From a candidate division WOR-3 bacterium (GTDB lineage Bacteria > SDB-A), in contig JAFGSQ010000016.1 in assembly GCA_016934535.1 (NCBI GenBank), positions 70,685 through 134,684 of the forward strand: DNA of 64,000 nt. Direction: 5' to 3'. This document shows, piece after piece, positions 9,940 to 42,425 of this stretch. Below the pieces are notes generated by a model. The model made no database searches. It had not been told where the DNA came from and saw nothing but the letters and a program-made list of their open reading frames with translations. The first letter of the stretch is position 1; the number at the start of each line of letters is the position of its first letter. The translations under genes and the position numbers were made by a program.

Positions 9940-10568
9940 CGGTAATCTCCTATGTTGTAAAATTTCAATCCTTCTCCAAAGTTTGAAATTTCCCTTATCA
10001 CGGCAGATGTGTCTTCGCCGTTTGATTCGTCGTAGCCGTTTATTACCATCATGTCCTGATTTGAAAGATTCAACAGGTAATCATCCATCGCCTTAAAAAG
10101 AGTTGAAAGATAATCTTTGCTGAGTTCTCTTTCGGAGATGAAACCTGATTTTGCAAGTTTGGCTTTGGCTAAAACAGGATCCGTTCGGATGTATACTATC
10201 AGATCCGGTTGGGGCAGGTTGTCGAGGAGAAGTGAAGACATATTGAGAAAAAGCGAATATTCATCGGAGTTCAGGGTACAGGATGCGTAAATTCTTCCTC
10301 TGTGCAAAGAAGCATCGGCGATGTAACATCCGCTGCCGAATATTTCAGGTTGAACGATTTTTTTAAGTATTTCTCTTCTTTCGAGAAGCAAAGAAACCTC
10401 GGCCGCAAAAGCGAAACTTCCCTCAGAAGAATAAAAATTCTTCAAAAAGGAATTCTGAGAAAAATCAGACCAATATATCCTGGCATCGAGTTCCTCCGAC
10501 AGTTTTCTGGCCAGACCGTATTTTCCAGAACAGGGCAATCCTTCCATAGAAATCATTTTAAAACGCAT
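9936..10568 (-). CDS. deoxynucleoside kinase family protein
   Basis: It has a P-loop (EGLPCSGKYG) and an ERR motif region like the dCK/dGK family, and its size is about 210 aa. Confidence 0.5.
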   Translation of the reverse strand: MRFKMISMEGLPCSGKYGLARKLSEELDARIYWSDFSQNSFLKNFYSSEGSFAFAAEVSLLLERREILKKIVQPEIFGSGCYIADASLHRGRIYASCTLNSDEYSLFLNMSSLLLDNLPQPDLIVYIRTDPVLAKAKLAKSGFISERELSKDYLSTLFKAMDDYLLNLSNQDMMVINGYDESNGEDTSAVIREISNFGEGLKFYNIGDYR

Positions 10569-10965
10569 CGATTTCCTTTCTCAATTGGTCTCTTTTCCTG
10601 AATGCGCACACTTCCACCTGGCCGACAACGCCGCCCAGGCTCGGTGAAGGTTTTTTCACTGTCACCTTTATCTCTTCAATTATGCTGAATTTTTCAAACA
10701 GAGATTCCATTATGCTCCTGGCAATCTTTTCAAGGAGGTTAAACCTGTTGTTCATGACCTCCTCTTTAACGGCCGTGTAAACTTTTCTGTAATCGAGTGT
10801 GTCCCTGAGATTGTCTGAAATCATTGCTTTATCAATATCAAGAATTATCTCCGCGTCTATTTCAATGTTTATTCCGTTGTTTCTTTCTACTTCAGCGTGT
10901 CCGTGATAAGCATAGAATTTCAGTTTTTTCAGCGAAATTCTATCCAGCATCGTTGCCCCTTTCAT
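10558..10965 (-). CDS. folB: dihydroneopterin aldolase
   Basis: The LKKLKFYAYHGHAEVERNNG sequence is the FolB signature. Confidence 0.8.
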   Translation of the reverse strand: MKGATMLDRISLKKLKFYAYHGHAEVERNNGINIEIDAEIILDIDKAMISDNLRDTLDYRKVYTAVKEEVMNNRFNLLEKIARSIMESLFEKFSIIEEIKVTVKKPSPSLGGVVGQVEVCAFRKRDQLRKEIDAF

Positions 10966-11001
10966 ATATTTCAGTTGTCTGATAGAATATCACAAAAGAA
11001 T

Positions 11002-11382
11002 ATGAATTCAAGAATTTTATCAATAGACCCGGGACGAAAAAAGTGCGGAGTTTCCATTTCAGACGAAACGTGCGTTATTTCCAGACCTTTGATGACTGTA
11101 GAAAGAGACAAGCTTTTCGAAATCCTCGCCAAGCTAATTGAAGAATACTGCGTCGCTGAAGTTGTTGTTGGCCAGACAATGACTCTTAACGGCCCATATA
11201 AACCTTCCGCTCGTCTCGCCGAAAAAATAAGAAAAGAATTCAGAATTAAAGTCTCTCTTTACGACGAGAACCTCTCAACAAAAAGAGCGAAAGAAATAAA
11301 ATCGAAAAAACACGGCGACGATGCGCTTTCTGCCGCCGTAATACTCCAGGATTATCTCAATGAAAATAATTCGGCAAAATAG
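11002..11382 (+). CDS. ruvX: Holliday junction resolvase-like protein RuvX/YqgF
   Basis: The N-terminus (ILSIDPGRKKCGVSISD) is YqgF-like. I placed the start at the internal ATG at 11002; the upstream extension of the ORF is unlikely to be coding. Confidence 0.85.
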   Translation: MNSRILSIDPGRKKCGVSISDETCVISRPLMTVERDKLFEILAKLIEEYCVAEVVVGQTMTLNGPYKPSARLAEKIRKEFRIKVSLYDENLSTKRAKEIKSKKHGDDALSAAVILQDYLNENNSAK

Positions 11383-12379
11383 GATTTTTTTCCCCTTTCC
11401 TTTTTTGGTTCAGCTGTTTTTTATATCTTGTAAAATGCTGAATTTATCTCAGAGCTTCACAGTTAACGGATCCGATTCAGTGATCTTCGAAATCAAAAGC
11501 GGTTCCTCCGTCGACGAAATAATGGACGATCTGGAAAAAAAAGGCGTTCTTCTCAGAAACGACAGGCAGTATTTCCTCAGATCCATAATCAGAAACGGCA
11601 AAGACAGATCAATTGCAAGCGGCAATTACCTTCTGCCCGTTCCTTCCAATCCCGAATCCCTGGCTTTGATTCTCGAAAGAGGTCCCGTTAAAAAATATGT
11701 CACAATACCTGAAGGTTTGACGATTGAACAGACGGCTTCCATTTTAAGCACAAAAGCAAATTGCGACAGCGCGGAATTTATCAAACTTTGCACTCAAACG
11801 GAAATGATATCCGCAGTATTTTCCGGAGACCGCTTCCGATCCGATCTACCCTCCTCTCTCGAAGGATTTCTTTTCCCGTCGACGTATGACTTCGGTTTCG
11901 GGGCATCTCCCGCCGAGGCCATACAAGAAATGGTTTTCCTTTATTTTACCGTCATCGATTCCGTTGAAAGACCTCAAATTATGATTTTGAACGATTACGA
12001 AGTCCTCATTCTCGCTTCCATGATTGAGAAAGAAGCCAAAGTTGATGAAGAAAGAGAAGTAATTTCTTCCGTTTACATCAATCGCCTTACAGCCGGAATG
12101 CCTCTTCAGTGTGACGCGACAATCCTTTACGCCTTGGGCGGACACAGAGAAAAAATATATTTCAGAGACCTTGAAATCAACTCTCCTTACAACACATATC
12201 TTTACAAGGGGCTTCCGCCGACACCGATATGCAATCCCGGAAAAAAATCCATTGAAGCGGCTTACTGTCCATCAGAAACAGATTATTTTTACTATGTGGC
12301 AAAAAAAGACGGAACACACATTTTTTCAAAAACTTACACCGAACATATAAGAGCTGTCAACAGCGTCAGAAACAATTGA
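11360..12379 (+). CDS. mltG: endolytic murein transglycosylase MltG (YceG family)
   Basis: It has an N-terminal TM segment and the YceG signature near the C-terminus (ILYALGG...YNTYLYKGLPPTPICNPG). Confidence 0.85.
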   Translation: MKIIRQNRIFFPFPFLVQLFFISCKMLNLSQSFTVNGSDSVIFEIKSGSSVDEIMDDLEKKGVLLRNDRQYFLRSIIRNGKDRSIASGNYLLPVPSNPESLALILERGPVKKYVTIPEGLTIEQTASILSTKANCDSAEFIKLCTQTEMISAVFSGDRFRSDLPSSLEGFLFPSTYDFGFGASPAEAIQEMVFLYFTVIDSVERPQIMILNDYEVLILASMIEKEAKVDEEREVISSVYINRLTAGMPLQCDATILYALGGHREKIYFRDLEINSPYNTYLYKGLPPTPICNPGKKSIEAAYCPSETDYFYYVAKKDGTHIFSKTYTEHIRAVNSVRNN

Positions 12380-12392
12380 ACGAGAGGCGGTC

Positions 12393-13955
12393 ATGTTTAT
12401 TCTCGGATCTGAACAAATAAAAGAGGCAGACAGAAAGGCGATCGAAGAGACGGGAATTCACCCTCTCGCGATGATGGAAAATGCCGGAAGAGCCGTGGCT
12501 GTCGCGGCAATAAATAATTGGAATTTACATGACTGCGATGAAGTCTTAATTCTAGCAGGAAAAGGGAACAACGGCGGTGACGCCTTGGTTTGCGCAAGGT
12601 TTTTAACCAATTTTGGGATCAAAACAAATGTTTTTTGTGTTTTCGATCCTTCTCTATTCTCAAAAGATGCGGAAATTCAGTACGGGATACTCAAAAGAAT
12701 CGGAATAACCTTGAATGAACTCTCTGTGTCAAATTTTAAAGAAAAATTTGAAGACAGTCTTTTTAACTCGCACCTTGTGATAGACGGAATTTTCGGGACG
12801 GGATTCAAAGGTCCGGTCACGGGTTTGCCTTCGGTTATCATTGATTCGGTCAACAAAGCTAAAAAGCCGGTACTTTCAATCGACATACCAAGCGGAGTCA
12901 ATTCTGACGACGGTTCTGTGAAAGGGACAGCCGTGAGAGCCAGTATCACAGTTACTTTCGCCTGCCCGAAAAAAGGACACTTCTCTATATCAGGAAAAGA
13001 ACATTCCGGAAGAATAATAGTCGCCGATATAGGATTACCAGGATCAATCGTCGAACAGCTTCACGATTCAGAACTCCTGACAACTGACTACGTCAGAAAA
13101 GTCATACCGGCCAGAAATGACACATGGCACAAGGGACAGTTCGGTAAAATACTCGTTGTCGGCGGGTCTGCATGCATGCCGGGAGCCCCTTTCCTCGCGG
13201 GCAAAGCGGCCTTCAAGACCGGAGCAGGTTTCGTCACTCTCGCCGTGCCGTCTGATATAATCGGCAATCCGTTCGGTTTTGAAGAGGCGACTTACTTCTG
13301 CGCGAACGACGGACCGTATCTGACCATGAAAGGTGCGAAAAGAATAATCGAACTGTCGGAGAATTACGACGCGGCCGTAATTGGTCCCGGCCTCGGCAGG
13401 GAAAAAGAAACCGCTTCAGCCGCCGCGGAAATACTGCTCGAATCAAAAATTCCGGCTGTCGTCGACGCTGACGCCCTGCATGCTGTTGTCCCTTTTCTGA
13501 AGAATGTCTCCGGGAGAAAACACACTGTGCTGACACCGCATTTAGGTGAATTCAGCGCTTTGACAGGACTCCCTACTGAAGAAATTAATAAGGATCCGGC
13601 CGGCCAAGTTCTGCGTTTTGCAGAAAAATACTCACTTACAATTCATTTGAAAGGTCCTCTCGGGAGAGTGACTTGCGGCAGTACATTGATGACCGCTGTG
13701 AATCCGGTGATGGAAAGCGCTCTCGCCACAGCTGGAAGCGGCGACGTTCTTTCGGGCATAATCGCCGCTCTCCTTGGAAAAACTTTTGACGCTTTCAAAA
13801 GCACCGGAGCAGGAGTTTTTATACACGCAGTATCCGGGATTATTGCGAGAGAAAAGTTTTATGCCGTTACTGCTTCCGACATTTACCGAAGTATTCCGGA
13901 CGCGATAAAAGCCGTCATAGAAAACAGAGACTTCGGATTTATAGATACAATTTAA
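12393..13955 (+). CDS. nnr: bifunctional NAD(P)H-hydrate epimerase / ADP-dependent dehydratase
   Basis: It has a YjeF-N domain (LAGKGNNGGDALV) and a YjeF-C carbohydrate-kinase domain (GSGDVLSG). Confidence 0.85.
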   Translation: MFILGSEQIKEADRKAIEETGIHPLAMMENAGRAVAVAAINNWNLHDCDEVLILAGKGNNGGDALVCARFLTNFGIKTNVFCVFDPSLFSKDAEIQYGILKRIGITLNELSVSNFKEKFEDSLFNSHLVIDGIFGTGFKGPVTGLPSVIIDSVNKAKKPVLSIDIPSGVNSDDGSVKGTAVRASITVTFACPKKGHFSISGKEHSGRIIVADIGLPGSIVEQLHDSELLTTDYVRKVIPARNDTWHKGQFGKILVVGGSACMPGAPFLAGKAAFKTGAGFVTLAVPSDIIGNPFGFEEATYFCANDGPYLTMKGAKRIIELSENYDAAVIGPGLGREKETASAAAEILLESKIPAVVDADALHAVVPFLKNVSGRKHTVLTPHLGEFSALTGLPTEEINKDPAGQVLRFAEKYSLTIHLKGPLGRVTCGSTLMTAVNPVMESALATAGSGDVLSGIIAALLGKTFDAFKSTGAGVFIHAVSGIIAREKFYAVTASDIYRSIPDAIKAVIENRDFGFIDTI

Positions 13956-15943
13956 TGAATTTTAGCAAAAACAGAAAATATTATTTCGTTTCAGCGTTTT
14001 TAGCCCTGGCGATACTGATCTTTTTTTCTTTTTTTTCAAAATCACTGCTTATAAAATCTGTCGACAAAATCCTTCGATCACGCGGAGTCGAAGCCTCACG
14101 GATCGCATTCCGGTTCCCTCTATTTTTTACTCTCAAAGACGTGAAATTTACAGAGGCAAACAGATTTGAAGGCGGATACGCGGAAGAAATTTCTTTCGCG
14201 CTTTCCCTACCGGATCCGGGAAAGATAAAGTTTTTATCTGTCGAAGATTTCCGAATTCCGTTTGCCAGCCGGATGAAAACAGGTGAAAGCGGAGATATTT
14301 CAGTTTCCGGCAGAAATATTCCTGACGAAATAAGACTGAAAAACGGGATCATAGAATTTTCAGGGCGTGAAATTATTGTGGATTCTTTTTCAGTGAAAAC
14401 GCAAGAAGATTCTCTCACGGGATATTTCAGTTCTTCTGGATCATTTTGCACTATTAACCTGCGTGATTCATCCGGAGTCTATCTTTTGTCAGCGCGGTCC
14501 AAAGACACTATAAAAATCTCTGAATACATGAACTTAAGCGGCTTCTCACTGAAAGCTGAAATTACAAGCGGTTCAATAAAAGGAAGCGTAAGAGGGAACT
14601 TTTCGACTTCGTTTTTCGGCGGGATCGAAACAACCTTAGAAGATAAAATCGAGATTGATTTTTCAGCTTCCCCCGCTGTCTTCTCACTTCCCAACAGAGG
14701 TGTTCGTGTCTCGACCAGTGAAGACTGTCTGATGATATCAGCCGACAGTTTCTTTTCACCGATCAAACCTCACGAAAAATTCGAGATAATATCATACAGC
14801 GTTTCCGGAAATTTGAGATTTTGCATAAAAGAAGGATTGTTCCTCGTAGATGCCGACTCTCTGAAAGTTTCAAACCTTCGGGTTCATTCACGTTTCATCT
14901 GCCGGGACACAGTGACTTTCAGCAGTTTGAACATACCATTGGCGCGGCTGTCGATTTCCTTTGATGACAGTTTAGTCGAAATTGACACTTTTGTCTTCGC
15001 TTTAGACAATTCTGATGTTTCGATCAACGGTTTTGTTGATTATTCCGACTCAGTGAGACTCCGGATTTCTTTCTGCGGAGAAAAAATCTCAGTCGAGGAC
15101 ATCATCAACTTTGTACCTGATGAACTTCTTCCGAATCTTTCCGGAATAAGCGGAAGAGGAGATTTCGATGTCTCGGGATATTTTTATTACGTTTCCTGCT
15201 TTCCAGAAAGCACAGATTTCGGCATCGGTTCTGTTTTCCGTGGAGTGTCAATAGATCACTTCGGACCGAAAATAGACATGGACACTTTTTCAAGACCTTT
15301 CGTCGCCACCGTCAGGATCGGTTCTTCGAAAGGTGAAAAGATAGCTCTCGGTATTCACAACCCGAATTTTGTGCCCATTGAAAATTTGCCCCAGTCTCTC
15401 ATCGGCGCCGTACTGGTTTGCGAAGACGGATCGTTTTTCAGCCACAGGGGATTCAGTCTTTTCCATATAAGAAGAGCCATGAGAGAAAACCTCAGCGCCG
15501 GCAGATACATAAGCGGCGGAAGCACTATAACGATGCAGTTGGCCAGAAATCTATTCCTGTCGGACGAAAGAAGCCTTTCAAGAAAACTCGAAGAAGCGGT
15601 GCTCACCTGGCAGTTGGAAAAACACCTCTCAAAGAAAAGAATACTTGAAATTTATCTGAATATTATCGAATTCGGTCCCGGAATCAGAGGAGTACAGGAG
15701 GCGTCAAAAGAATATTTCGGAACTGACGCCTCAAATCTTGATCCTCTTCAATCAGCGTATTTCGCCAGTATTATACCAAACCCCAGAAGATATTATCAGA
15801 TTCAATTCGAAAGAGGCTCCATCTCGCCGTACTGGCACCAGAAACTTGTCAGAATTATGGAACTGGAACTGGCAAGAAATTACATCGATTCAACCGCTTT
15901 CGACAGTTTCTCCGCAATTGATTTGGAATTCATTGATCGATAA
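13955..15943 (+). CDS. membrane protein with a large N-terminal beta-rich domain fused to a C-terminal GT51 peptidoglycan transglycosylase (MtgA-like) domain
   Basis: The C-terminal 200 aa carries the GT51 motifs EDGSFFSHRG, GGSTITMQLARN and RKLEEAVLTWQLEKHLSKKRILEIYLN. It has an N-terminal TM helix followed by a roughly 420-aa repetitive region of unknown function. Confidence 0.75.
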   Translation: MNFSKNRKYYFVSAFLALAILIFFSFFSKSLLIKSVDKILRSRGVEASRIAFRFPLFFTLKDVKFTEANRFEGGYAEEISFALSLPDPGKIKFLSVEDFRIPFASRMKTGESGDISVSGRNIPDEIRLKNGIIEFSGREIIVDSFSVKTQEDSLTGYFSSSGSFCTINLRDSSGVYLLSARSKDTIKISEYMNLSGFSLKAEITSGSIKGSVRGNFSTSFFGGIETTLEDKIEIDFSASPAVFSLPNRGVRVSTSEDCLMISADSFFSPIKPHEKFEIISYSVSGNLRFCIKEGLFLVDADSLKVSNLRVHSRFICRDTVTFSSLNIPLARLSISFDDSLVEIDTFVFALDNSDVSINGFVDYSDSVRLRISFCGEKISVEDIINFVPDELLPNLSGISGRGDFDVSGYFYYVSCFPESTDFGIGSVFRGVSIDHFGPKIDMDTFSRPFVATVRIGSSKGEKIALGIHNPNFVPIENLPQSLIGAVLVCEDGSFFSHRGFSLFHIRRAMRENLSAGRYISGGSTITMQLARNLFLSDERSLSRKLEEAVLTWQLEKHLSKKRILEIYLNIIEFGPGIRGVQEASKEYFGTDASNLDPLQSAYFASIIPNPRRYYQIQFERGSISPYWHQKLVRIMELELARNYIDSTAFDSFSAIDLEFIDR

Positions 15944-16114: not shown

Positions 16115-17065
16115 ATGATTAGAATTTCGAGCGTTTTCGTTATCCCGGCTTCTTTGATTTTCCTTTGTTTGTCCTGCACACAGCCCGCAGATCCGTCATA
16201 TAAGGGTCCCGTAATTGAAAGTGTCAGCGGCCGCCATGTTTTCATTCTGTCGGAACCTTGTTCCCTCAAGATATATGTTTCCGACGAGAAACACTCTTCC
16301 ATAGAGATCAGATCTATTACAGGAGAAGACACCTCTCAATGGATGAATTCTTTTCCTTCCAATCAGGATTTCTACATGGAATTGAATCAACCGGACACGG
16401 GCTTCAACTCCGTAACACTGCAGGCGAGAAATCCTGATGAAATGACTTCTTCCTGGTCCGACCCGTTTATTTTTTTCGCGGCGGCGGACTCGCTTTATTT
16501 TTATGATGATTTCAACACACAGGACACATTTCTCGACACGTCCGTATGGACATTCGGCACGAGCGGCAACGCCGTAATAAAGATCGGCGACTGTGATCAA
16601 AGAAGGGCGGTTTTATTTTACGACCCTCTGATAGGTTCGAGCTGGATTACAGCCTACGCCTACATTCCGTTGGCGGATTCCGGTTCGATTTCATTTTCAG
16701 TTTTCATTCCTTCGTCTGCTTCTGCGGACGAAAGCAATTTACTGTCTTTCCGGACATTTCCCTATAACTGGGACTGGCCCTCCCGGGGAATGCATTTCGG
16801 GATAGTTTCAGATTCACTCTGCTACAAATACGGAACCACGTGGAACAAACTTGCTTCCATCCCCAGAGGGCAATGGAACGATATATCTGTTGTATACAGC
16901 TCCATGTCGAAAAAGTATTCTTTTTTAATTAATCAAACCCAACTGAATGTGCCCATTGATTTTGACGGTTCCGGCACGGACAACATTCTCTTCCAGATAC
17001 TTTGCCCGGATAACGCCTTCAGGGACAGTATTTGGCTTGACGACCTCTCTTTCAGGCTTCTTTGA
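16115..17065 (+). CDS. hypothetical lipoprotein (first gene of the dacB operon)
   Basis: It has a signal peptide with a lipobox (FLCLSC). I recognise no family. Confidence 0.5.
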   Translation: MIRISSVFVIPASLIFLCLSCTQPADPSYKGPVIESVSGRHVFILSEPCSLKIYVSDEKHSSIEIRSITGEDTSQWMNSFPSNQDFYMELNQPDTGFNSVTLQARNPDEMTSSWSDPFIFFAAADSLYFYDDFNTQDTFLDTSVWTFGTSGNAVIKIGDCDQRRAVLFYDPLIGSSWITAYAYIPLADSGSISFSVFIPSSASADESNLLSFRTFPYNWDWPSRGMHFGIVSDSLCYKYGTTWNKLASIPRGQWNDISVVYSSMSKKYSFLINQTQLNVPIDFDGSGTDNILFQILCPDNAFRDSIWLDDLSFRLL

Positions 17066-17103
17066 ATACCGATTCTTAATCTACTTCATGCGCTGTTTGT
17101 GTA

Positions 17104-18492
17104 TTGATTTACTCTCATCCATGGGATAAAATGCTCATTATGCTTAACCATCTTCTTGTGTTCTTTTTTCTCACTTCTGCCGTTAATTCGTCGAAAATTG
17201 ACGGCTTTATAAGATCTTTGGGACCAGTACATTCAGGTATTCATTGCGTCAACACTAAAACGGGTGAATCAGTTTATTCTTACAACCAGGATTTCCTGTT
17301 CGTGCCGGCTTCGGTTCAGAAACTTCTGACGGTAGCGGGATCGTTTTTCATACTCGGCACCGATTACAGATTTTCGACCTATCTCCTCTGCGATTCTATC
17401 AGATCCGACACCGTTTACAATCTCGTTTTAAGAGGATCGGGAGATCCTTCGTTAGATTTAAAATCCATAGAACTCCTCGTCAAACACCTGAAATCCATTG
17501 ACATTAATAATATTCAAGGAGATATTTGCACGTATTCACGCGATCTCGACACACTTCCTCTCGGCGTCGGCTGGATGTGGGACGAAGGTTATTACGCTTA
17601 CAGTGCGAGAATTTCGGCTTTGAGCTGCTGTGGGAATTACGTTACTGTCAAAGCTGCCGTGACTGATGGAAGGATAACTTATGACATAATGCCGAAATCT
17701 GACTTCGTCGAATTGGTAAATCTTCTCGCTCCGGGAACCGAAAACAAATACACCGTCGAAAGATACTTCGACGGAGAAATTAACATCATTGTACTCTCCG
17801 GTACTCTCAAAACCCCTATCGAGAGAACAGTGAATTTGGAAAGGCCGGACCTTTTCACGGGACACCTATTTATGAGAGCCGCAATCGAAAGCGGGATATC
17901 CTTCCAAGGAATGGTACGATCCATACAGACCCTGCCTGCAGTTTATGAAACGGCTGCTGTTTTTGTATCCCCGCCTCTTTTCGCCCTGTCAGACAGCATA
18001 TTGAATTACAGTCTCAATCTCTCGTCAGAACTATTGTTGAGAAAGATTGCCTCTCTGAACTCTTTGGGAGCGTCTTCTCTCGAAGGCATATCCCTCATTT
18101 TCCAGAAATTCAGTTATTTAGGCCTCTCAACGTCAGGTATTGTGTCAAAAGACGGTTGTGGTCTGTCGAGATACAATCTTCTTTCACCAAGATTCCTGAC
18201 TTCTCTTCTCTCTCTGATGTTAAAACAACCCGGTACGTCTAATCTTTTTTTCAATTGCCTTCCGATAATGGGCAGGGAGGGCACCGTGAACAACAGACTT
18301 CGCAGAATTTCTGAAGACAGAGCGAGAGCAAAAACTGGAACTTTGTCAGGCATATCAACTATAGCCGGCTACATTGTAACGAAAAGGCAGGACACTCTTT
18401 CTTTCGCTATTATGATGAATAATTTTTCTATATCCCAAAACCAGATAAAAAATGTTCAGGACAGTATTATCCTCGAACTGATGAACTACTGA
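17104..18492 (+). CDS. dacB: D-alanyl-D-alanine carboxypeptidase/endopeptidase, PBP4 (peptidase S13) family
   Basis: It has the SVQK (SxxK) and KTGT motifs and S13-like organisation throughout. Confidence 0.8.
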   Translation: MIYSHPWDKMLIMLNHLLVFFFLTSAVNSSKIDGFIRSLGPVHSGIHCVNTKTGESVYSYNQDFLFVPASVQKLLTVAGSFFILGTDYRFSTYLLCDSIRSDTVYNLVLRGSGDPSLDLKSIELLVKHLKSIDINNIQGDICTYSRDLDTLPLGVGWMWDEGYYAYSARISALSCCGNYVTVKAAVTDGRITYDIMPKSDFVELVNLLAPGTENKYTVERYFDGEINIIVLSGTLKTPIERTVNLERPDLFTGHLFMRAAIESGISFQGMVRSIQTLPAVYETAAVFVSPPLFALSDSILNYSLNLSSELLLRKIASLNSLGASSLEGISLIFQKFSYLGLSTSGIVSKDGCGLSRYNLLSPRFLTSLLSLMLKQPGTSNLFFNCLPIMGREGTVNNRLRRISEDRARAKTGTLSGISTIAGYIVTKRQDTLSFAIMMNNFSISQNQIKNVQDSIILELMNY

Positions 18493-18493
18493 A

Positions 18494-19669
18494 ATGAACT
18501 CACTGGTGCTTTTCGAGAAAGACAGAGACAATTTTTACCCCCTTTCCCTTTCAAGGCACGTATCGGATCTAATTACAGGTTATTTTACTTTTTCGGAGGG
18601 TTTCAGACGCCTGTACGATTTGTGCGAAATCACTTTATTATCTCCCGCTTACATGGAAGAACACCTCAGAGAATCTCATCCCGCTTTCCGAATTAACGAA
18701 GAACAGCAGTATTCCCTATATCTTCGCGCCTCTATTTTGCCCGAAAAAAAAATTAAAAAACAAATATCGTTGGACGGACCCGAAGAAGCCTTCACCTGCG
18801 AAGGAAGTGTTATCGGATTCAGAGGATCCCCTGACACTGCAAAAATGTTTTTTAAGGAAGGCTTGACCCCCAAAAACATGCCTGTCAGGGAAGTTGAAGC
18901 GCAGGTTTTCAATAGCGTGTGTGATATCGTCGAAGGCAATGCTTTGTCGCTTGAAAGAAATTTTACACGCGGAGCTCTGAACGGCGAGATAGCAGGAACG
19001 GCTAAACTCATATCGCCCGAAAAGATATTTGTCGGCGCAAATTCGACAGTTGAAGATTATGTTCTTATCGACGCGAGGAAAGGTCCCGTTCACATAAGCG
19101 AAGGAGTAGAAATTAAATCCCACAGCGTTGTGGCCGGTCCGGTTTACATAGGACATGGTACTCTTGTAAAACCATTCACTCACATACTCAACGGATGCAG
19201 TTTCGGTCCTCAGTGCAGACTGAGCGGAGAAATATCAAAATCGCTGTTTATCGGATACTCAAACAAACAGCACTCCGGTTTTTTGGGCAATTCATACGTT
19301 GGAGAGTGGGTCAATTTCGGAGCCGGAACGACAAACTCAAACCTCAAGAATAACTATTCCGAGATCACCGTGCATTATAAAGGTGAATTTCACCGGACAG
19401 GAATGACTTTTTTGGGCCTGCTCTGCGGAGACCACGTCAAAACAGCCATTGGCACTCTCTTCAACACAGGAACGACTGTAGGCTTGGGCGCCAACATCTT
19501 CAAACCAGGTTTGACGGATAAATGTATTCCATCTTTAAGCTGGGGACCCGGAGAAAAGTATTCATTTGACAAATTCCTGAAAACAGCTGAAACCGTCATG
19601 TCGAGGAGAGAAAGAAAATTGACGGATTCATACGGAGAAATGCTCGAACACATATTCATAAATTCATGA
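18494..19669 (+). CDS. hexapeptide-repeat (left-handed beta-helix) protein with a degenerate N-terminal nucleotidyltransferase-like domain; GlmU-like, possibly acetyltransferase
   Basis: The C-terminal third has hexapeptide repeats (GEWVNFGAGTTNSN...GLGANI). The N-terminus is a diverged sugar-nucleotidyltransferase fold lacking the GxGxR motif. It is translationally coupled to the PAP2 gene (ATGA). Confidence 0.6.
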   Translation: MNSLVLFEKDRDNFYPLSLSRHVSDLITGYFTFSEGFRRLYDLCEITLLSPAYMEEHLRESHPAFRINEEQQYSLYLRASILPEKKIKKQISLDGPEEAFTCEGSVIGFRGSPDTAKMFFKEGLTPKNMPVREVEAQVFNSVCDIVEGNALSLERNFTRGALNGEIAGTAKLISPEKIFVGANSTVEDYVLIDARKGPVHISEGVEIKSHSVVAGPVYIGHGTLVKPFTHILNGCSFGPQCRLSGEISKSLFIGYSNKQHSGFLGNSYVGEWVNFGAGTTNSNLKNNYSEITVHYKGEFHRTGMTFLGLLCGDHVKTAIGTLFNTGTTVGLGANIFKPGLTDKCIPSLSWGPGEKYSFDKFLKTAETVMSRRERKLTDSYGEMLEHIFINS

Positions 19670-20202
19670 AAATCCTTCTCCTGTCTTTTTTTTTTCTTTT
19701 TTGTTTTAACAGTTTGTGTTCATTCGACCCTGACCGTCGGGTAACCGAAACCGTAAGAAACAAACTCTCTTCTCCCTTGTCTCAAAATTTAATGGAATAT
19801 ACTACAAAACTCGGGGACGGCAGGACAGTTCTTCTAACTTCCACAGTCATGTCTTTTGGTGATGAAAAAATGAGAAGGTGCGGCGAGCTTTCGATGGCAT
19901 CTTTCGCCGTTTCCGGAATACTTACCGTCGGCATAAAATACGCTGTGAACAGACAAAGACCCAACGGCGGCACCAGCTCTTTCCCATCGGGTCATACTTC
20001 CACCGCTTTTTCCTGGGCCGCGGTTGTTTCCAGCGAATATCCTCAATACAGTATTCCGGTTTTCGCAGTCGCCGGATTAGTTGGTGTTTCGAGAATAGCT
20101 TTGGATAAGCACTGGACTTCCGATGTAATCGCAGGAGCAGTCATAGGATATTTTTCGGGTTTGTTTATCGAAAAGATTTCCTGCTGGATAACGGATTATT
20201 GA
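19666..20202 (+). CDS. PAP2-family phosphatase (membrane)
   Basis: It has the three PAP2 motifs: KYAVNRQRP, PSGHTS and SRIALDKHWTSD. Confidence 0.8.
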   Translation: MKILLLSFFFLFCFNSLCSFDPDRRVTETVRNKLSSPLSQNLMEYTTKLGDGRTVLLTSTVMSFGDEKMRRCGELSMASFAVSGILTVGIKYAVNRQRPNGGTSSFPSGHTSTAFSWAAVVSSEYPQYSIPVFAVAGLVGVSRIALDKHWTSDVIAGAVIGYFSGLFIEKISCWITDY

Positions 20203-21041
20203 AAAACCTCGCATATAAAAAATTCCTGCCTTATTTAATTGTAACAAGGCCGTTAAACCTTGTCATAATCGCCGCAGCAGTTTATTTGGGATTTGCAGTC
20301 ACTTCTAACGCTTTTGTGCCTTCTGTCCGCCAAACAATTTTATTCGTGCCAATTATCCTTCTAGCCGCCGCGGGATACTGCATCAACGATGTTCTTGACA
20401 TGAAAGAAGACAAAATCAACAAACCTGATCGAGTTCTCGTCAGAAAAGCCGTGTCTAAAAAGACTTGCACTATTTACGCCCTGGTACTTACAGCTTTTTC
20501 TGTTGCTATTTCTCTTCATGATATGACTCTTGCTGTCGTAAACACCACTTTGATAGTCTTCGTTCTAGCGTACAATTTTTTTCTTAAAAAAACACCCCTC
20601 GCAGGAAACTTTACGACGGCAATTCTTTCATCTTTCCCCGTAATTTGGGGAAGTTATATTGGAGGTACTGTAAATCTCGACATTATATATATCGCTGTCC
20701 TCGCCTTTATCCTTCACTTTACCCGTGAAATAGTAAAGGACATTGAAGATATCAAAGGAGACTCACTCGCAGGTAAAAACACAACGGCGGTCTTTTTCGG
20801 AGCAAAAATATCGGTTTTGCTCGCTTCTTTTCTGATTTTATTATCCTGTGTAATGGCGATTTTTGTTTTTACATATCTTTTTAGAATATCTGTCTGCTCA
20901 ACTTTTTCTTCCGCAATTGTTACTTTATCATTGATGTTCAGTTTGTTTGCTTTGTTGAGGGCAAAATTTCCGATTGCTTCAAAATCCATCAGAATCTCAA
21001 TGATTCTGTGTGTCTTCTGTCTGTTTTTCCTCTACTTATAA
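20199..21041 (+). CDS. UbiA-family integral membrane prenyltransferase (TTG start overlapping the PAP2 stop)
   Basis: It has the NDVLDMKEDKINKPDR Asp-rich motif (NDxxDxxxD) and a second D-rich motif (KDIEDIKGD). It is about 280 aa with 8-9 TM segments. Confidence 0.8.
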   Translation: MKNLAYKKFLPYLIVTRPLNLVIIAAAVYLGFAVTSNAFVPSVRQTILFVPIILLAAAGYCINDVLDMKEDKINKPDRVLVRKAVSKKTCTIYALVLTAFSVAISLHDMTLAVVNTTLIVFVLAYNFFLKKTPLAGNFTTAILSSFPVIWGSYIGGTVNLDIIYIAVLAFILHFTREIVKDIEDIKGDSLAGKNTTAVFFGAKISVLLASFLILLSCVMAIFVFTYLFRISVCSTFSSAIVTLSLMFSLFALLRAKFPIASKSIRISMILCVFCLFFLYL

Positions 21042-25695: not shown

Positions 25696-27540
25696 GTGCG
25701 ATTTGATAAAAAATACGGATTTTTGCTTTCGTTTCTTTTTTTTATGTTGCTGAACGCGACTTTTTACCTGGCCACTGTAGCTCCGGGTCTGACGTTCATT
25801 GATTCCGGAGAACTTACCGCCTGCGGAGCGCTTTACGGCATTCCTCACCCGACGGGATATCCGCTATATTCGCTTTTTGTCAGAATTTTCATCTCTTTGA
25901 CTTCCGTTTTCAAAGTTGAAGCGGATATTGCTTCAAATCTGTTTTCGGTCCTCTGCGCCTGCCTGGCGGGCGCAGTTTTGTCTTCATCCCTGCATAGAAA
26001 AACCGGTTTTATTCCGGCCCTGATTTTAGACATTCTCCTTTGCTTTCATCCGATCGTGTGGTCGGCGGCTACAGAAACTGAGGTTTACGCTCTTACTCTC
26101 CTTCTTTCATCAACGCTTCTCGCCGTATTTTTGAACACTCCGAAAAAGAAATACTATCTTTCTTTCTCTTTACTTCTATCTTACATGTGCGGACTTTTTT
26201 TGGGAAATCATCTCATGATAGCCGGATTTGTATTACCTCTGCTCTTTTATTCAGCCCTGAGGCTCCAGAGAAAAAAAAGATTTTTCGCCTTTTTCGCCAT
26301 TGTCGCCGCTGCAGCAGGCGCCAGCATATATTTGACAATCTACTACAGGTCTATGTGCCCACCGCCCCTGGATTGGGGCGGGACTTCGCGAGGATTCACC
26401 CAGCTTTTTTATCACGTGACCGGAAAGCAATATCAGGTCTGGATGTTTTCAAAGGGTGCCCTCGGTTTCTTGTCCGCTCTTTCAAATCTTCTTAAATTTA
26501 TTTTCATAAATCCGTTCGCGCCTCTTTATCTTCTCGCAGTCCCCGGGATCATGCACCTTTACAGAAAAAACAGGCCTTTACTGTTCATTCTGCTGGCGTG
26601 CTTCGGTCTCAACCTTGCCTACGCTTCCTCATACAGCATACCGGACATATCAAGCTATATGATTCCTTCAGTAACGGTCATAGCGGTTCTCTGTGCTTTC
26701 GGATCATTTTGGCTTTTTTCAAAAAAATCCGCTCGGTTTTTTATCGCGGTGGTTTTGATCCTCGCCGTTTTTCCGATGTACAACGGATTCAGAAAAGAAG
26801 ACAAAACAGGTCTTTTTCTCGCCGAGGACTACGCTCTTTCCATACTCTCTTTTCTTCCGGAATCGTCGGTTTATCTCGTAAACTCCCCCGGGGCTCTCGC
26901 CTGGGAGGAAGTATCTCCGATCATATACTTTCAAAGCATTAAAATGCACAGAACAGACGTCACGGTAATCGACAAAGAACTTTTGCGGAGGTCGTGGTAT
27001 GTGATTTGGATAAACTCTGAAAATCCTGATCTTGCGGAATCATGGCCGAATGAGTACAACAGTTTCCTGCTTCTTCTGACCGCCTGGGAGAAAGGAGACG
27101 AAGTGGACACAGGCTCTCTTCAGAATGCTTTTGAAAATTTGATTTTTGCCCTTTACAGATACGGAAAAAGCCGTGGCGGATTTTTCATTTCCAATCCGCC
27201 TTCCGGAAAGTTCACGGCACATCCCGATCATGACCTGAGAAAATTATCCGAAGTCTCGTTTTTGCCTTACGGTTTTTTCTTCACGGACGACAGCTCGGCA
27301 GATGACTCGCATATTTGGAAATCACTGACCTTGAGGCCTGTTCCCGGAAATTTGTCCCGTAACGAAAGAGTCCTCATGATAACGGGAAACATCAAACAAT
27401 CCGCCTGGAGAAAGGTTTACAGAATCAATATGGAAAGCGGAGGGAAGTTCACTGAGAAGTCACTTCCCTACATCGAATTCATTATCAAGCTTGATCCGGA
27501 GGATACTCTGGCGTCTGGAATCATGAATCGGTTTTACTGA
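25696..27540 (+). CDS. DUF2723 / TMEM260-like polytopic membrane protein (GT-C fold, putative polyprenyl-P-sugar-dependent glycosyltransferase)
   Basis: The N-terminus (FIDSGELTACGALYGIPHPTGYPLYSL) is characteristic of DUF2723. It has about 11 TM helices followed by a soluble C-terminal domain of about 200 aa. Confidence 0.7.
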   Translation: MRFDKKYGFLLSFLFFMLLNATFYLATVAPGLTFIDSGELTACGALYGIPHPTGYPLYSLFVRIFISLTSVFKVEADIASNLFSVLCACLAGAVLSSSLHRKTGFIPALILDILLCFHPIVWSAATETEVYALTLLLSSTLLAVFLNTPKKKYYLSFSLLLSYMCGLFLGNHLMIAGFVLPLLFYSALRLQRKKRFFAFFAIVAAAAGASIYLTIYYRSMCPPPLDWGGTSRGFTQLFYHVTGKQYQVWMFSKGALGFLSALSNLLKFIFINPFAPLYLLAVPGIMHLYRKNRPLLFILLACFGLNLAYASSYSIPDISSYMIPSVTVIAVLCAFGSFWLFSKKSARFFIAVVLILAVFPMYNGFRKEDKTGLFLAEDYALSILSFLPESSVYLVNSPGALAWEEVSPIIYFQSIKMHRTDVTVIDKELLRRSWYVIWINSENPDLAESWPNEYNSFLLLLTAWEKGDEVDTGSLQNAFENLIFALYRYGKSRGGFFISNPPSGKFTAHPDHDLRKLSEVSFLPYGFFFTDDSSADDSHIWKSLTLRPVPGNLSRNERVLMITGNIKQSAWRKVYRINMESGGKFTEKSLPYIEFIIKLDPEDTLASGIMNRFY

Positions 27541-40655: not shown

Positions 40656-42425
40656 TCAGTAACGGTTGAATTTTCTGCTGAAAGTCGCCTGTCCTATCCT
40701 GGCGAGCACGAAATAACTTCCCGCCTGGATTCCCTCTCCAATATCCTCTGATAATAAGTGGTGTCCCTCCGAATACCTGCCTTCAGCGACGACATAGACG
40801 CTTCTTCCTGTGACGTCAAAAATCTTTACTGAAACGTCGGTCATCTCAGTGAGAGAGAATTCGACTCTCAACAATCCCTCCGAAAAGACGGACGCGAATT
40901 CCACCTGCGCCGGAACGACAGTGACAGGCATCTCTTCAACGGAATTAATTTCGTAAGACACGGTGTAGAATCCTTCCGGAGCCGTGTAGGGATCCCTTTC
41001 GGTCCTTCCGGAGGAGTCTGTCGCCTGGATAAAGTAATCAATAACAGCAGTGTCGTCGGCGACCGGTTGAGGCAAAATACACCAAAAACTGTCGGGAAAG
41101 CCGGTTACCCTCTCCATTGTCTCAAAATTTTCAAAAACGCTGTCTCCGTGGAACTTCCACGCGAAAAACACCTGATCGCTTATTACGCCTTCGCCGCTGT
41201 AATCATGGACGAGAGCGCGGATTCTCAGTTCGAAAGGATCTATACCGGGGTCGTGATCTACAAAAAGCATTCCGGGGTCGAAAATAGCCATAGTCCTGCA
41301 GTGGATGGCGTCTGTGGGTTCAAAACTGTAATCCGTATAACCTACTGCGTCGTAACCGGGCATCTCCCTCTCGTAAAAGTTGATCGCGGCAGTGTCGTAC
41401 AATGTATTGCCGGTCACCGGCACGTAGACTTTATTGTTGAGTATCAGGCTGTTGACGTAAGCGGCGTATATGCTATCAGGACAGTTGAGCCTGACGACCT
41501 CGTAATTTCTGCCGTAACAGTTTGTAAGAGTCGTAATGTAATTCGCGAGCTGATTGAGAGCGGCGTCGTCAACTCCGTTCCTTATGACGACAACTTTCTC
41601 TTCCGAAAGAAATTTAGCATAACAATCTATGTGATTTATGTAGCTTCCGAGCGGGTCGTTGAAAGTGTAATAGTTGGAAATTCCCCAGTAGGCGAGCATC
41701 AAAGCGTTGACCGAATCTACGGACAAAGACGGGTTGTCGTCTGAATATACGTTGTTGCTCGACATCGCTCTGCCGTGGCCGTCGCACATCATATTGCCGC
41801 CCGTGTGAGCGAGCATTGTTTTCCACAGTTTTATTCCGAGAGCCGGTGCGAGGTCCCAGTTGGACTCGTCGTCGTCTATCCTGCCGTGAGTGTATCTTCT
41901 GTTGTAGACGTGGTCTGAAATTCCCACTGAATCGTTTCCGTCGAAGACCGACCAGGGGCCGTAATCCCTCGTCCAGTAGCTGTTGGTTGGAGTCGAAACG
42001 AAAGTTACGTCGGAGAGAGAAATGCCGTGGCTCGTGAAAGCCGACTGGGCGGACGAGACGTTGTCCGTAAGACAGGTGACGTGGAGATCCTGAGCGAGAT
42101 CTGATATAAGATTCCACGGCAGTCCGACGGGATATCTTATGAGAACGGAAACCGCCGGTTCCCACTCGGCGCACATCCTGACGGGCGCGGCGGGAGGATC
42201 GGTCGGCACAACGGGATCTTTTCCCATGGAAGGATAATATTCAGGCAGAAGCGGTTTTAAAGGGCCTGGATCGTGAGGAGGATGATTGACAGACATTCCG
42301 TCGACGATTAGTTCGGCGAATTCTCCGGAAAACGGCCCTTCTTCATGTCCGGGTATCCAGGTATTCGCGGAAGTGAGTACAATTGTCAGAACGAATATTA
42401 AAAACATGTCACCTTCCTTTTTCAA
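40656..42425 (-). CDS. secreted agmatine deiminase / Porphyromonas-type peptidylarginine deiminase (PPAD) family enzyme with a T9SS-type C-terminal sorting domain
   Basis: It has a signal peptide and the guanidino-modifying motifs WTRDYGP, GGN..DG.G, HID and IHC (catalytic Cys). The last 75 aa or so (VSVKIFDVTGRSV...GSYFVLARIGQATFSRKF) match the Por secretion tail pattern. Confidence 0.65.
   Translation of the reverse strand: MKKEGDMFLIFVLTIVLTSANTWIPGHEEGPFSGEFAELIVDGMSVNHPPHDPGPLKPLLPEYYPSMGKDPVVPTDPPAAPVRMCAEWEPAVSVLIRYPVGLPWNLISDLAQDLHVTCLTDNVSSAQSAFTSHGISLSDVTFVSTPTNSYWTRDYGPWSVFDGNDSVGISDHVYNRRYTHGRIDDDESNWDLAPALGIKLWKTMLAHTGGNMMCDGHGRAMSSNNVYSDDNPSLSVDSVNALMLAYWGISNYYTFNDPLGSYINHIDCYAKFLSEEKVVVIRNGVDDAALNQLANYITTLTNCYGRNYEVVRLNCPDSIYAAYVNSLILNNKVYVPVTGNTLYDTAAINFYEREMPGYDAVGYTDYSFEPTDAIHCRTMAIFDPGMLFVDHDPGIDPFELRIRALVHDYSGEGVISDQVFFAWKFHGDSVFENFETMERVTGFPDSFWCILPQPVADDTAVIDYFIQATDSSGRTERDPYTAPEGFYTVSYEINSVEEMPVTVVPAQVEFASVFSEGLLRVEFSLTEMTDVSVKIFDVTGRSVYVVAEGRYSEGHHLLSEDIGEGIQAGSYFVLARIGQATFSRKFNRY

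Follow-up and report, generated by a model that had tools for sequence, protein, structure and literature searches.

The locus and the fusion gene

The window analysed here is a whole stretch of 64,000 nucleotides from a candidate division WOR-3 bacterium (contig JAFGSQ010000016.1, positions 70,685 to 134,684). Its gene at 13955..15943 on the forward strand encodes a protein identical in sequence to NCBI MBN2363146.1, 'transglycosylase domain-containing protein [candidate division WOR-3 bacterium]'. The first-pass annotation of this DNA had proposed that a peptidoglycan glycosyltransferase domain of family GT51 is here fused to the C-terminus of a long, membrane-anchored, β-rich domain, and the present analysis agrees: the GT51 match occupies residues 454-617, there is a single transmembrane (TM) helix, and strand accounts for 66% of the predicted secondary structure of residues 43-440. 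As described below, the N-terminal region is probably homologous, to judge from sequence profiles, to proteins of the AsmA-like clan, and the architecture recurs in other lineages. The features of the gene are as follows, in window coordinates.

13955..15943, + strand: whole gene; 662-residue bitopic protein consisting of a TM anchor, a probable AsmA-like β-groove domain and GT51
13979..14053, + strand: TM anchor, residues ~9-33; the preceding KNRK suggests an N-in topology
14033..14287, + strand: post-anchor region, residues 27-111; in the merged profile alignment described below, pairs with the N-terminus of the AsmA family, called Chorein-N in the literature
14081..15262, + strand: predicted β-rich periplasmic domain, residues 43-436; ~27 strands in successive hairpins
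14951..15184, + strand: most conserved part of the N-domain, residues 333-410; includes helix 380-386 and the motif VPDELLPNLSGISGRGDFD
15314..15805, + strand: GT51 domain, residues 454-617; most similar to MtgA, the monofunctional type
15422..15424, + strand: codon of Glu490, the catalytic glutamate of motif 1 (EDGSFFSH); invariant in the family alignment A6
15593..15595, + strand: codon of Glu547, the glutamate of motif 3 (RKLEE); likewise invariant in A6

The GT51 catalytic domain

The Pfam model PF00912 (Transgly) matches residues 469-616 with an e-value of 2.5e-50 and 170.8 bits against a cut-off of 27, while the best NCBIfam model, TIGR02070, covers residues 454-617 with 172.5 bits, under its equivalog cut-off of 182.65. 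Sequence matches in the PDB include Aquifex PBP1a (2oqo, E = 3.3e-30) and, over residues 469-650, the MGT structures of Staphylococcus aureus. The catalytic motifs, for which the GT51 patterns are EDxxFxxHxG, GGSTITxQ and RKxxE, are present, namely EDGSFFSHRG (from E490), GGSTITMQ (from G521), RKLEE (R543-E547) and RKLEEAVLTWQLE, and E490, R543, K544 and E547 are invariant in A6, an alignment of 20 diverged family members. With all motifs intact, catalytic competence of the domain is supported at the level of sequence. By the same measure the protein is a member of GT51, but it departs from an MtgA equivalog both in score and in architecture (662 residues, with ~420 between TM helix and GT51). 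Searches of Pfam and NCBIfam revealed no transpeptidase or other domain associated with penicillin-binding proteins (PBPs), in keeping with the earlier impression that the N-terminal region does not resemble a PBP transpeptidase, and the chain ends 45 residues past the GT51 match.

Distribution of the fusion

A search with the N-terminal 455 residues retrieved two more proteins, 43-46% identical and 653 and 656 residues long, both with a C-terminal Transgly domain; word-indexed homologue searches with the N-domain reached 3-4 clusters only. An N-domain profile, run exhaustively with HMMER against 1.84 billion representative proteins, added P0004 (681 residues), P0005 (689 residues) and P0008 (650 residues, from Candidatus Fermentibacteraceae), all with GT51 at the C-terminus. 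Their N-domains are only 21-25% identical to that of the window protein, yet co-linear with it. In all, the layout was seen in six protein clusters with N-domains 21-46% identical, each having a C-terminal Transgly domain. The N-domain is nevertheless very rare, with six proteins at E ≤ 0.001 among the 1.84e9 representatives, and a profile scan of genome contigs with the close alignment returned the two known relatives only.

Broader relatives emerged from a metagenome scan keyed on the GT51 motifs of the family. No further WOR-3-type member was among the 80 GT51 loci that it produced, most of which were generic GT51 genes. About 20 of the 80 share the layout of a TM helix, 370-470 further residues and a C-terminal GT51 domain, and these revealed relatives in Bacteroidota. 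Exact-sequence look-ups identify some as proteins of Bacteroides thetaiotaomicron, B. ovatus and B. xylanisolvens, in 90%-identity clusters of 2,000-5,000 members; others belong to Bacteroidales, Tenuifilaceae and Chitinophaga. At source, the relatives are named only "biosynthetic peptidoglycan transglycosylase", "transglycosylase domain-containing protein" or "penicillin-binding protein". The relatives of the fusion protein lie on independent contigs and come from independent samples, different studies and different phyla, so that an assembly or frameshift artefact is excluded and the question of conservation, raised by the first-pass annotation, is answered positively. Judged by sequence, the architecture spans WOR-3, Fermentibacterota and Bacteroidota and is not peculiar to the window genome. 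The WOR-3 protein is one divergent representative of a broad family that extends across the Fibrobacteres-Chlorobi-Bacteroidetes (FCB) group and has been annotated but is apparently uncharacterised.

Two taxonomic labels deserve mention here. The contig L002 (CAYNIW010000002.1) is labelled 'uncultured Desulfuromonadaceae' and P0004 (KQC12577.1) 'Desulfuromonas sp. SDB'; both show 36-54% identity to the WOR-3 window and share with it the gene order ruvX-mltG-nnr-fusion gene. The labels of these metagenome-assembled genomes look doubtful, possibly through mis-binning.

Sequence features and predicted fold of the N-domain

A Kyte-Doolittle (KD) profile at KD > 1.6 has a single hydrophobic segment, near residues 9-33. 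An N-terminal α-helical anchor in the inner membrane is a property of the AsmA-like clan (PMC10345924), and residues 9-33 provide it in the fusion protein. Beyond the anchor, the region was described in the first-pass annotation as rich in Ser, Phe and Asp, and its composition bears this out: over residues 30-450, Ser makes up 15.2% of the sequence, Phe 9.7% and Asp 7.6%, compared with 9.9%, 6.0% and 5.3% in five neighbouring proteins. The accompanying description as repetitive does not hold at the sequence level. Self-BLASTP found no internal repeats and self-alignment of the profile gave an off-diagonal probability of 0.2%; the only repeated element of the N-domain is its succession of β-hairpins. 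Within the most conserved part, P388 is invariant across 20 family members and L391 and G402 are nearly so. Residues 1-450 have no match in Pfam, in NCBIfam or among PDB sequences, the last searched with both single sequence and profile.

Residues 1-455 were modelled with AlphaFold2 (AF2) from an alignment of six family N-domains and the N-terminal 470 residues of eleven AsmA proteins. The resulting model, with a mean predicted local distance difference test score (pLDDT) of 81.3 and a predicted template-modelling score of 0.65, comprises a helix at residues 7-42, including the TM segment, followed by ~27 β-strands in successive hairpins and a short helix at 380-386. Over residues 1-320 its secondary structure agrees at 96% of positions with that of the first model, for which no AsmA sequences were used. 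The strands are amphipathic, alternating between hydrophobic and polar residues beyond what is seen when residues are shuffled within strands (z = 3.5; a value as high was reached by 1 shuffle in 2000). One strand face is enriched in I/F/V/L, the opposite one in S/R/D, which accounts for the odd Ser/Phe/Asp composition.

When the model was compared with the PDB using Foldseek, the top matches were the N-terminal (Chorein-N) lipid-transfer domains of Atg2 and Vps13, at probabilities of 0.98-1.0; no other PDB fold matched with high probability. These domains are treated as homologues of the Chorein-N region of AsmA (PMC10345924). Fold matches to ApoB100, a porin, β-galactosidase and amine oxidase were dismissed as β-rich background of low probability, as was a match to P0006, a low-complexity repeat protein.

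Sequence relationship to the AsmA-like clan

The first-pass annotation had suggested, tentatively, that the N-terminal region might be AsmA/TamB-like, and sequence profiles as well as the fold comparison support the idea. Searches with hidden Markov models, also proposed there, gave a divided outcome: no Pfam family model matched, but the HMMER scan with the N-domain profile picked up, weakly, the 974-residue protein P0007 (E = 3e-5, profile positions 279-401). P0007 is a true AsmA-clan protein, with Pfam matches to YhdP (6.9e-33), AsmA (1.7e-24) and DUF748 (1.1e-20). Profile alignment to it with hhalign gave a probability of 84.5% for a stretch of 78 columns with the motif VP.ELLP.L.G..G.G.(F/I)D at its centre.

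Relatives of the fusion protein point the same way. Their N-termini show recurrent, co-linear sub-threshold matches to DUF748 (2.6e-8, 1e-5, 4.7e-4 and 0.013), as well as to AsmA (0.022, 0.11) and YhdP (0.025), the best sub-threshold score to a clan model being 32.9 bits against a cut-off of 50. One relative (L039) has a sub-threshold YhdP match at the same position as the conserved residues 333-410. In profile comparisons, the WOR-3 and Bacteroidota N-domains align at 93.1% probability (E = 3.1e-7) over 165 co-linear columns ending at the GT51 junction, and the Bacteroidota N-domain aligns with 19 annotated AsmA proteins at 95.3% (E = 2.2e-8) over 329 columns from the TM helix on. A merged alignment of 20 N-domains, with the window protein as master and the Bacteroidota relatives included, matches the AsmA alignment A4 at 95.8% (E = 7.3e-9), residues 27-111 of the window protein pairing with AsmA residues 32-129. 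Even with the TM helix removed, the merged alignment matches AsmA at 90.2% (E = 1.5e-6), whereas controls with reversed queries stay at or below 0.6%. The AsmA comparison alignment was made by hand.

The N-terminal region of AsmA, Chorein-N, is homologous to the N-termini of VPS13 and ATG2 (PMC6791001, PMC10345924). Taken on its sequence evidence, the N-domain is probably homologous to the AsmA-like clan.

Gene neighbourhood

The fusion gene lies between two co-directional blocks:

10897..13955, + strand: upstream block ruvX - mltG (YceG) - nnr (YjeF_N+Carb_kinase); co-directional and abutting or overlapping the fusion gene
16115..21041, + strand: downstream block of a 316-residue open reading frame (ORF), PBP4/DacB (S13), a sugar nucleotidyltransferase, a PAP2 phosphatase and a UbiA prenyltransferase; co-directional

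The neighbours are therefore as first described, mltG and nnr upstream and PBP4 downstream, with the addition of the 316-residue ORF before PBP4. The order ruvX-mltG-nnr-fusion gene is kept in all WOR-3-type loci with sufficient flanking sequence (L001, L002, L084/L085 and L086), and mltG lies two genes upstream of the fusion gene in every WOR-3-type locus examined. By contrast, the downstream block is conserved in the closest relatives only and elsewhere the downstream genes vary. The Fermentibacteraceae locus, that of P0008, has a different context, DPBB_1 followed by pyrF.

The ATG of the fusion gene overlaps the nnr stop codon (TAATG, window 13953-13957), and the corresponding overlap is 7 nt in the P0004 locus and 29 nt in that of P0005. 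Such overlap suggests that translation of the NAD(P)HX-repair enzyme is coupled to that of a cell-wall polymerase, a pairing that is unusual and yet conserved.

Downstream, the 316-residue ORF (16115-17065, + strand) between the fusion gene and PBP4 has a hydrophobic N-terminus ending in ...LCLSC and no match in Pfam; from its sequence, the product may be a lipoprotein or secreted protein. L002 has a syntenic counterpart of 313 residues at 10042-10983, while the P0004 and P0005 loci have a HAD-family hydrolase in place of this ORF. After PBP4, the genes at 18494-21041 (+ strand), encoding an NTP_transf_4+Hexapep sugar nucleotidyltransferase, PAP2 (178 residues) and UbiA (280 residues), are tightly packed or overlapping, and the block is syntenic in L002. 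PAP2 and UbiA are polyprenyl or lipid phosphate enzymes and may be relevant to the recycling of the undecaprenyl diphosphate released by GT51.

Proposed mechanism

GT51 polymerases and AsmA-like lipid bridges are central parts of the Gram-negative envelope that have so far been treated as separate systems. Their conserved covalent fusion suggests that an AsmA-type groove can serve an enzyme dependent on polyprenyl lipids. We propose, with a probability of roughly 0.45, that the gene product is an inner-membrane-anchored GT51 polymerase whose AsmA-like groove serves the polyprenyl tails of lipid II. The AsmA-like module of ~400 residues, with its Chorein-N-type start and amphipathic β-groove, would replace the usual short linker between TM helix and GT51, rising from the anchor as a predicted hydrophobic groove as in AsmA, TamB and YhdP. 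Since GT51 starts ~25 residues after the last strand, it would be placed at the module's distal end. Lipid II and the growing chain, which are the two substrates of GT51, both carry undecaprenyl tails. In all characterised AsmA-like and repeating β-groove (RBG) proteins, the groove shields lipid tails (PMC10345924). These two properties together lead us to propose that the groove holds polyprenyl tails: it would shelter those of lipid II and of the nascent chain and feed substrate to the polymerase, or hold it there, so that glycan would be polymerised on a protein rail and not at the bilayer surface. A plausible partner that would cut or terminate the strands is MltG, known to be an endolytic terminase of glycan strands, whose gene belongs to the same conserved block. 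The downstream PAP2 and UbiA genes, in the closest relatives only, are compatible with a context of polyprenyl-phosphate metabolism.

A bolder version of this proposal makes the groove a dedicated lipid II conduit, lifting precursor and nascent chain ~10 nm off the inner membrane so that GT51 would work at the sacculus and polymerisation would take place off the membrane. The distance is an estimate, obtained as ~27 strands at ~4-5 Å each, and we consider this version unlikely. Were it true, it would represent the first cargo other than a glycerophospholipid for the AsmA or bridge-like lipid-transfer fold, and a new spatial mode of peptidoglycan synthesis in WOR-3, Fermentibacterota and the abundant gut Bacteroides.

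Several observations weigh against the groove serving lipid II, or against the AsmA-like assignment on which this depends. The jaw region of a GT51 domain is normally in the membrane while the enzyme works. The broad family has no shared gene neighbourhood, the Bacteroidota contexts being different. As regards homology, the six WOR-3-type N-domains have no Pfam match even at e-values up to 10, and models of the AsmA clan (Pfam CL0401) reach threshold on none of the family members. Given these unmatched formal thresholds, we file the N-domain as "AsmA-like" and do not assign it to a named family. Furthermore, the WOR-3 profile alone matches the AsmA alignment at E = 0.027, no better than the reversed control at E = 0.041, so that the link to AsmA is transitive, passing through the Bacteroidota relatives, with P0007 in addition. 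As regards structure, AsmA sequences were part of the AF2 input and the model is consequently partly circular; the Foldseek e-values are weak (at least 2.5e-3) and the template-modelling scores only 0.16-0.32; and a full-length AF2 model from a three-sequence alignment was unusable, with a pLDDT of 36.7. Finally, lipid handling by the N-domain is something that we infer.

Alternative explanations

The strongest alternative is that the AsmA-like module is a spacer, scaffold or regulatory domain that does not handle substrate, with GT51 still at the bilayer. The module would then lie along the inner membrane or bend, and would position, oligomerise or regulate the polymerase, perhaps through contacts with the sacculus, an outer-membrane partner or the MltG/PBP4 machinery, in analogy to the UB2H and ODD domains of class A PBPs. 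It is established that GT51 enzymes need membrane contact, and class A PBPs do carry accessory regulatory domains; the conserved linkage to mltG fits a role in a protein complex, and the best-conserved part of the N-domain (residues 380-455) adjoins GT51, as would be expected of an interface between domains or with a partner. Against this, the strands are strongly amphipathic and their I/F/V/L face would require a cover of lipid or protein, while ~400 groove residues kept across phyla would make a costly spacer. Moreover, every characterised member of the AsmA-like or RBG fold is a lipid-groove protein (PMC10345924). On balance we find the scaffold explanation rather doubtful.

A second alternative retains the lipid groove but changes its cargo: the N-domain would be a working AsmA-type conduit carrying glycerophospholipids toward the outer membrane, coupled to wall synthesis. 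Lipid supply and peptidoglycan growth might in that case be coupled at the same sites, or the bridge might be anchored in the sacculus via its own glycan strand. The homology of the N-domain to AsmA/YhdP proteins agrees with such a role, as does the occurrence of the architecture in lineages of the FCB group, which we take to be diderm. Nevertheless, TamB, YhdP and YdbH, the established transporters, have grooves longer than these ~400 residues, and there is no C-terminal element for docking at the outer membrane, since the chain runs instead into GT51 and ends 45 residues later. Bacteroidota, furthermore, already own TamB and several longer AsmA-like proteins (PMC12045153). Overall, a phospholipid bridge seems quite improbable.

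Lastly, an artefact in which a frameshift, or an error in sequencing or assembly, merged two separate genes, one for an unknown membrane protein and one for a short MtgA, or in which the N-terminal part is not translated, has no point that we found in its favour and is scarcely credible given the single unbroken frame 13955..15943 (+ strand) with its start coupled to the upstream stop, the even base composition over the whole gene including the junction, the lack of an internal TM helix or start context before GT51, and the finding of the same architecture in independent assemblies, made in different studies and from different phyla, whose N-domains go down to 21% identity.

Comparison with known systems

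The fusion protein has the catalytic domain, motifs and N-terminal anchor of MtgA (TIGR02070; Escherichia coli MtgA and S. aureus MGT, PDB 3VMQ/3HZS) and, like it, no transpeptidase domain. MtgA, however, has ~240 residues with the glycosyltransferase directly after the TM helix, whereas in the fusion protein ~420 β-rich residues intervene. Motif 2 also differs, reading GGSTITMQ as against the usual GGSTITQQ of MtgA. With AsmA-like proteins the N-domain has in common the N-terminal inner-membrane helix and, in the model, the long run of amphipathic strands, and with AsmA/YhdP proteins in particular the ...LP..L...L.G.G... motif region. AsmA-like proteins form an elongated β-taco whose hydrophobic groove is continuous, to which the predicted β-groove of the N-domain would correspond. 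At ~400 residues it is shorter than the AsmA paralogues of E. coli (570-1270 residues), and the protein ends in an enzyme domain, without the C-terminal outer-membrane-docking segment of AsmA-like proteins. Among the AsmA-like proteins described in the literature searched, none has a catalytic domain.

The closest counterparts are the long transglycosylases of Bacteroidota, of ~620-650 residues, exemplified by B. ovatus WP_254009321.1, B. xylanisolvens WP_212134410.1, Tenuifilaceae MDY0200019.1 and Chitinophaga WP_291942653.1. They have the same three-part layout and the same GT51 subtype (GGSTITMQ, LEEA..W..E), and the C-terminal half of their N-domain and the GT51 junction are homologous to those of the WOR-3 form. 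Overall identity is, however, ~20%, and the first ~280 residues of the N-domain cannot be aligned confidently. The two also differ in abundance: the WOR-3-type subfamily consists of six clusters among billions of proteins, the Bacteroides clusters of thousands of members each.

Class A PBPs likewise combine GT51 with an additional non-catalytic domain (UB2H in PBP1b, ODD in PBP1a), presumed to tune the place and time of polymerisation. Those domains lie after or within the glycosyltransferase-transpeptidase module and bind the lipoprotein activators LpoA and LpoB. In the fusion protein the extra domain, of unrelated β-groove fold, is instead placed between TM helix and GT51, and a transpeptidase domain is absent.

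In the open-access literature that we searched, no description of an AsmA-GT51 fusion was found, although absence there is not proof of novelty. Neither the inventory of AsmA-like proteins of E. coli (PMC10345924) nor that of F. johnsoniae, supplementary table included (PMC12045153), mentions a transglycosylase fusion; Levine's survey of Chorein-N contains no occurrence of transglycosylase or peptidoglycan, and a keyword search of the paper on P. aeruginosa (PMC10900882) gave zero occurrences of 'transglycosylase'. The one Bacteroides paper that was retrieved terms BT_1195 simply a predicted mtgA homologue (PMC10861873). A known enzyme and a known lipid-groove fold thus apparently occur here in an unreported combination.

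The fusion points to an unrecognised variant of peptidoglycan synthesis and bears both on the roles of small AsmA paralogues and on which lipids the fold can carry. Since the architecture is present in thousands of Bacteroides sequences labelled as MtgA-like, the idea that an AsmA-like groove serves lipid II can be tested directly in a gut bacterium that is amenable to genetics. The application of moenomycin-type GT51 inhibitors, or of envelope-targeting strategies, to Bacteroides may be affected as well.

Other observations

The metagenome loci include GT51 proteins of other composition. At L060:1717-3423 and L074:1774-3420 there are GT51 proteins of 549-569 residues in which a TM helix and ~370 residues precede the catalytic domain; their cluster has 63 members named 'hypothetical protein', and no AsmA-clan signal was detected in Pfam. 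Their N-domains may be AsmA-like modules that have diverged further, or may be of another kind. A 592-residue ORF at L056:1192-2967 (+ strand; contig Ga0209393_1003287) is a different N-terminal fusion to GT51, with a polytopic Wzy_C/O-antigen-ligase-like domain (PF04932, E = 3.3e-18, residues 113-253) ahead of a C-terminal Transgly domain (E = 5.5e-53). This shows GT51 to be fused to more than one kind of module for lipid-linked glycans.

Elsewhere in the window, and unrelated to the fusion, a 614-residue protein encoded at 25696-27540 (+ strand) has a TMEM260-like domain of O-mannosyltransferase type (E = 1.8e-15), and a 589-residue protein at 40656-42425 (- strand) has a Porphyromonas-type peptidyl-arginine/agmatine deiminase domain (E = 1.7e-28).

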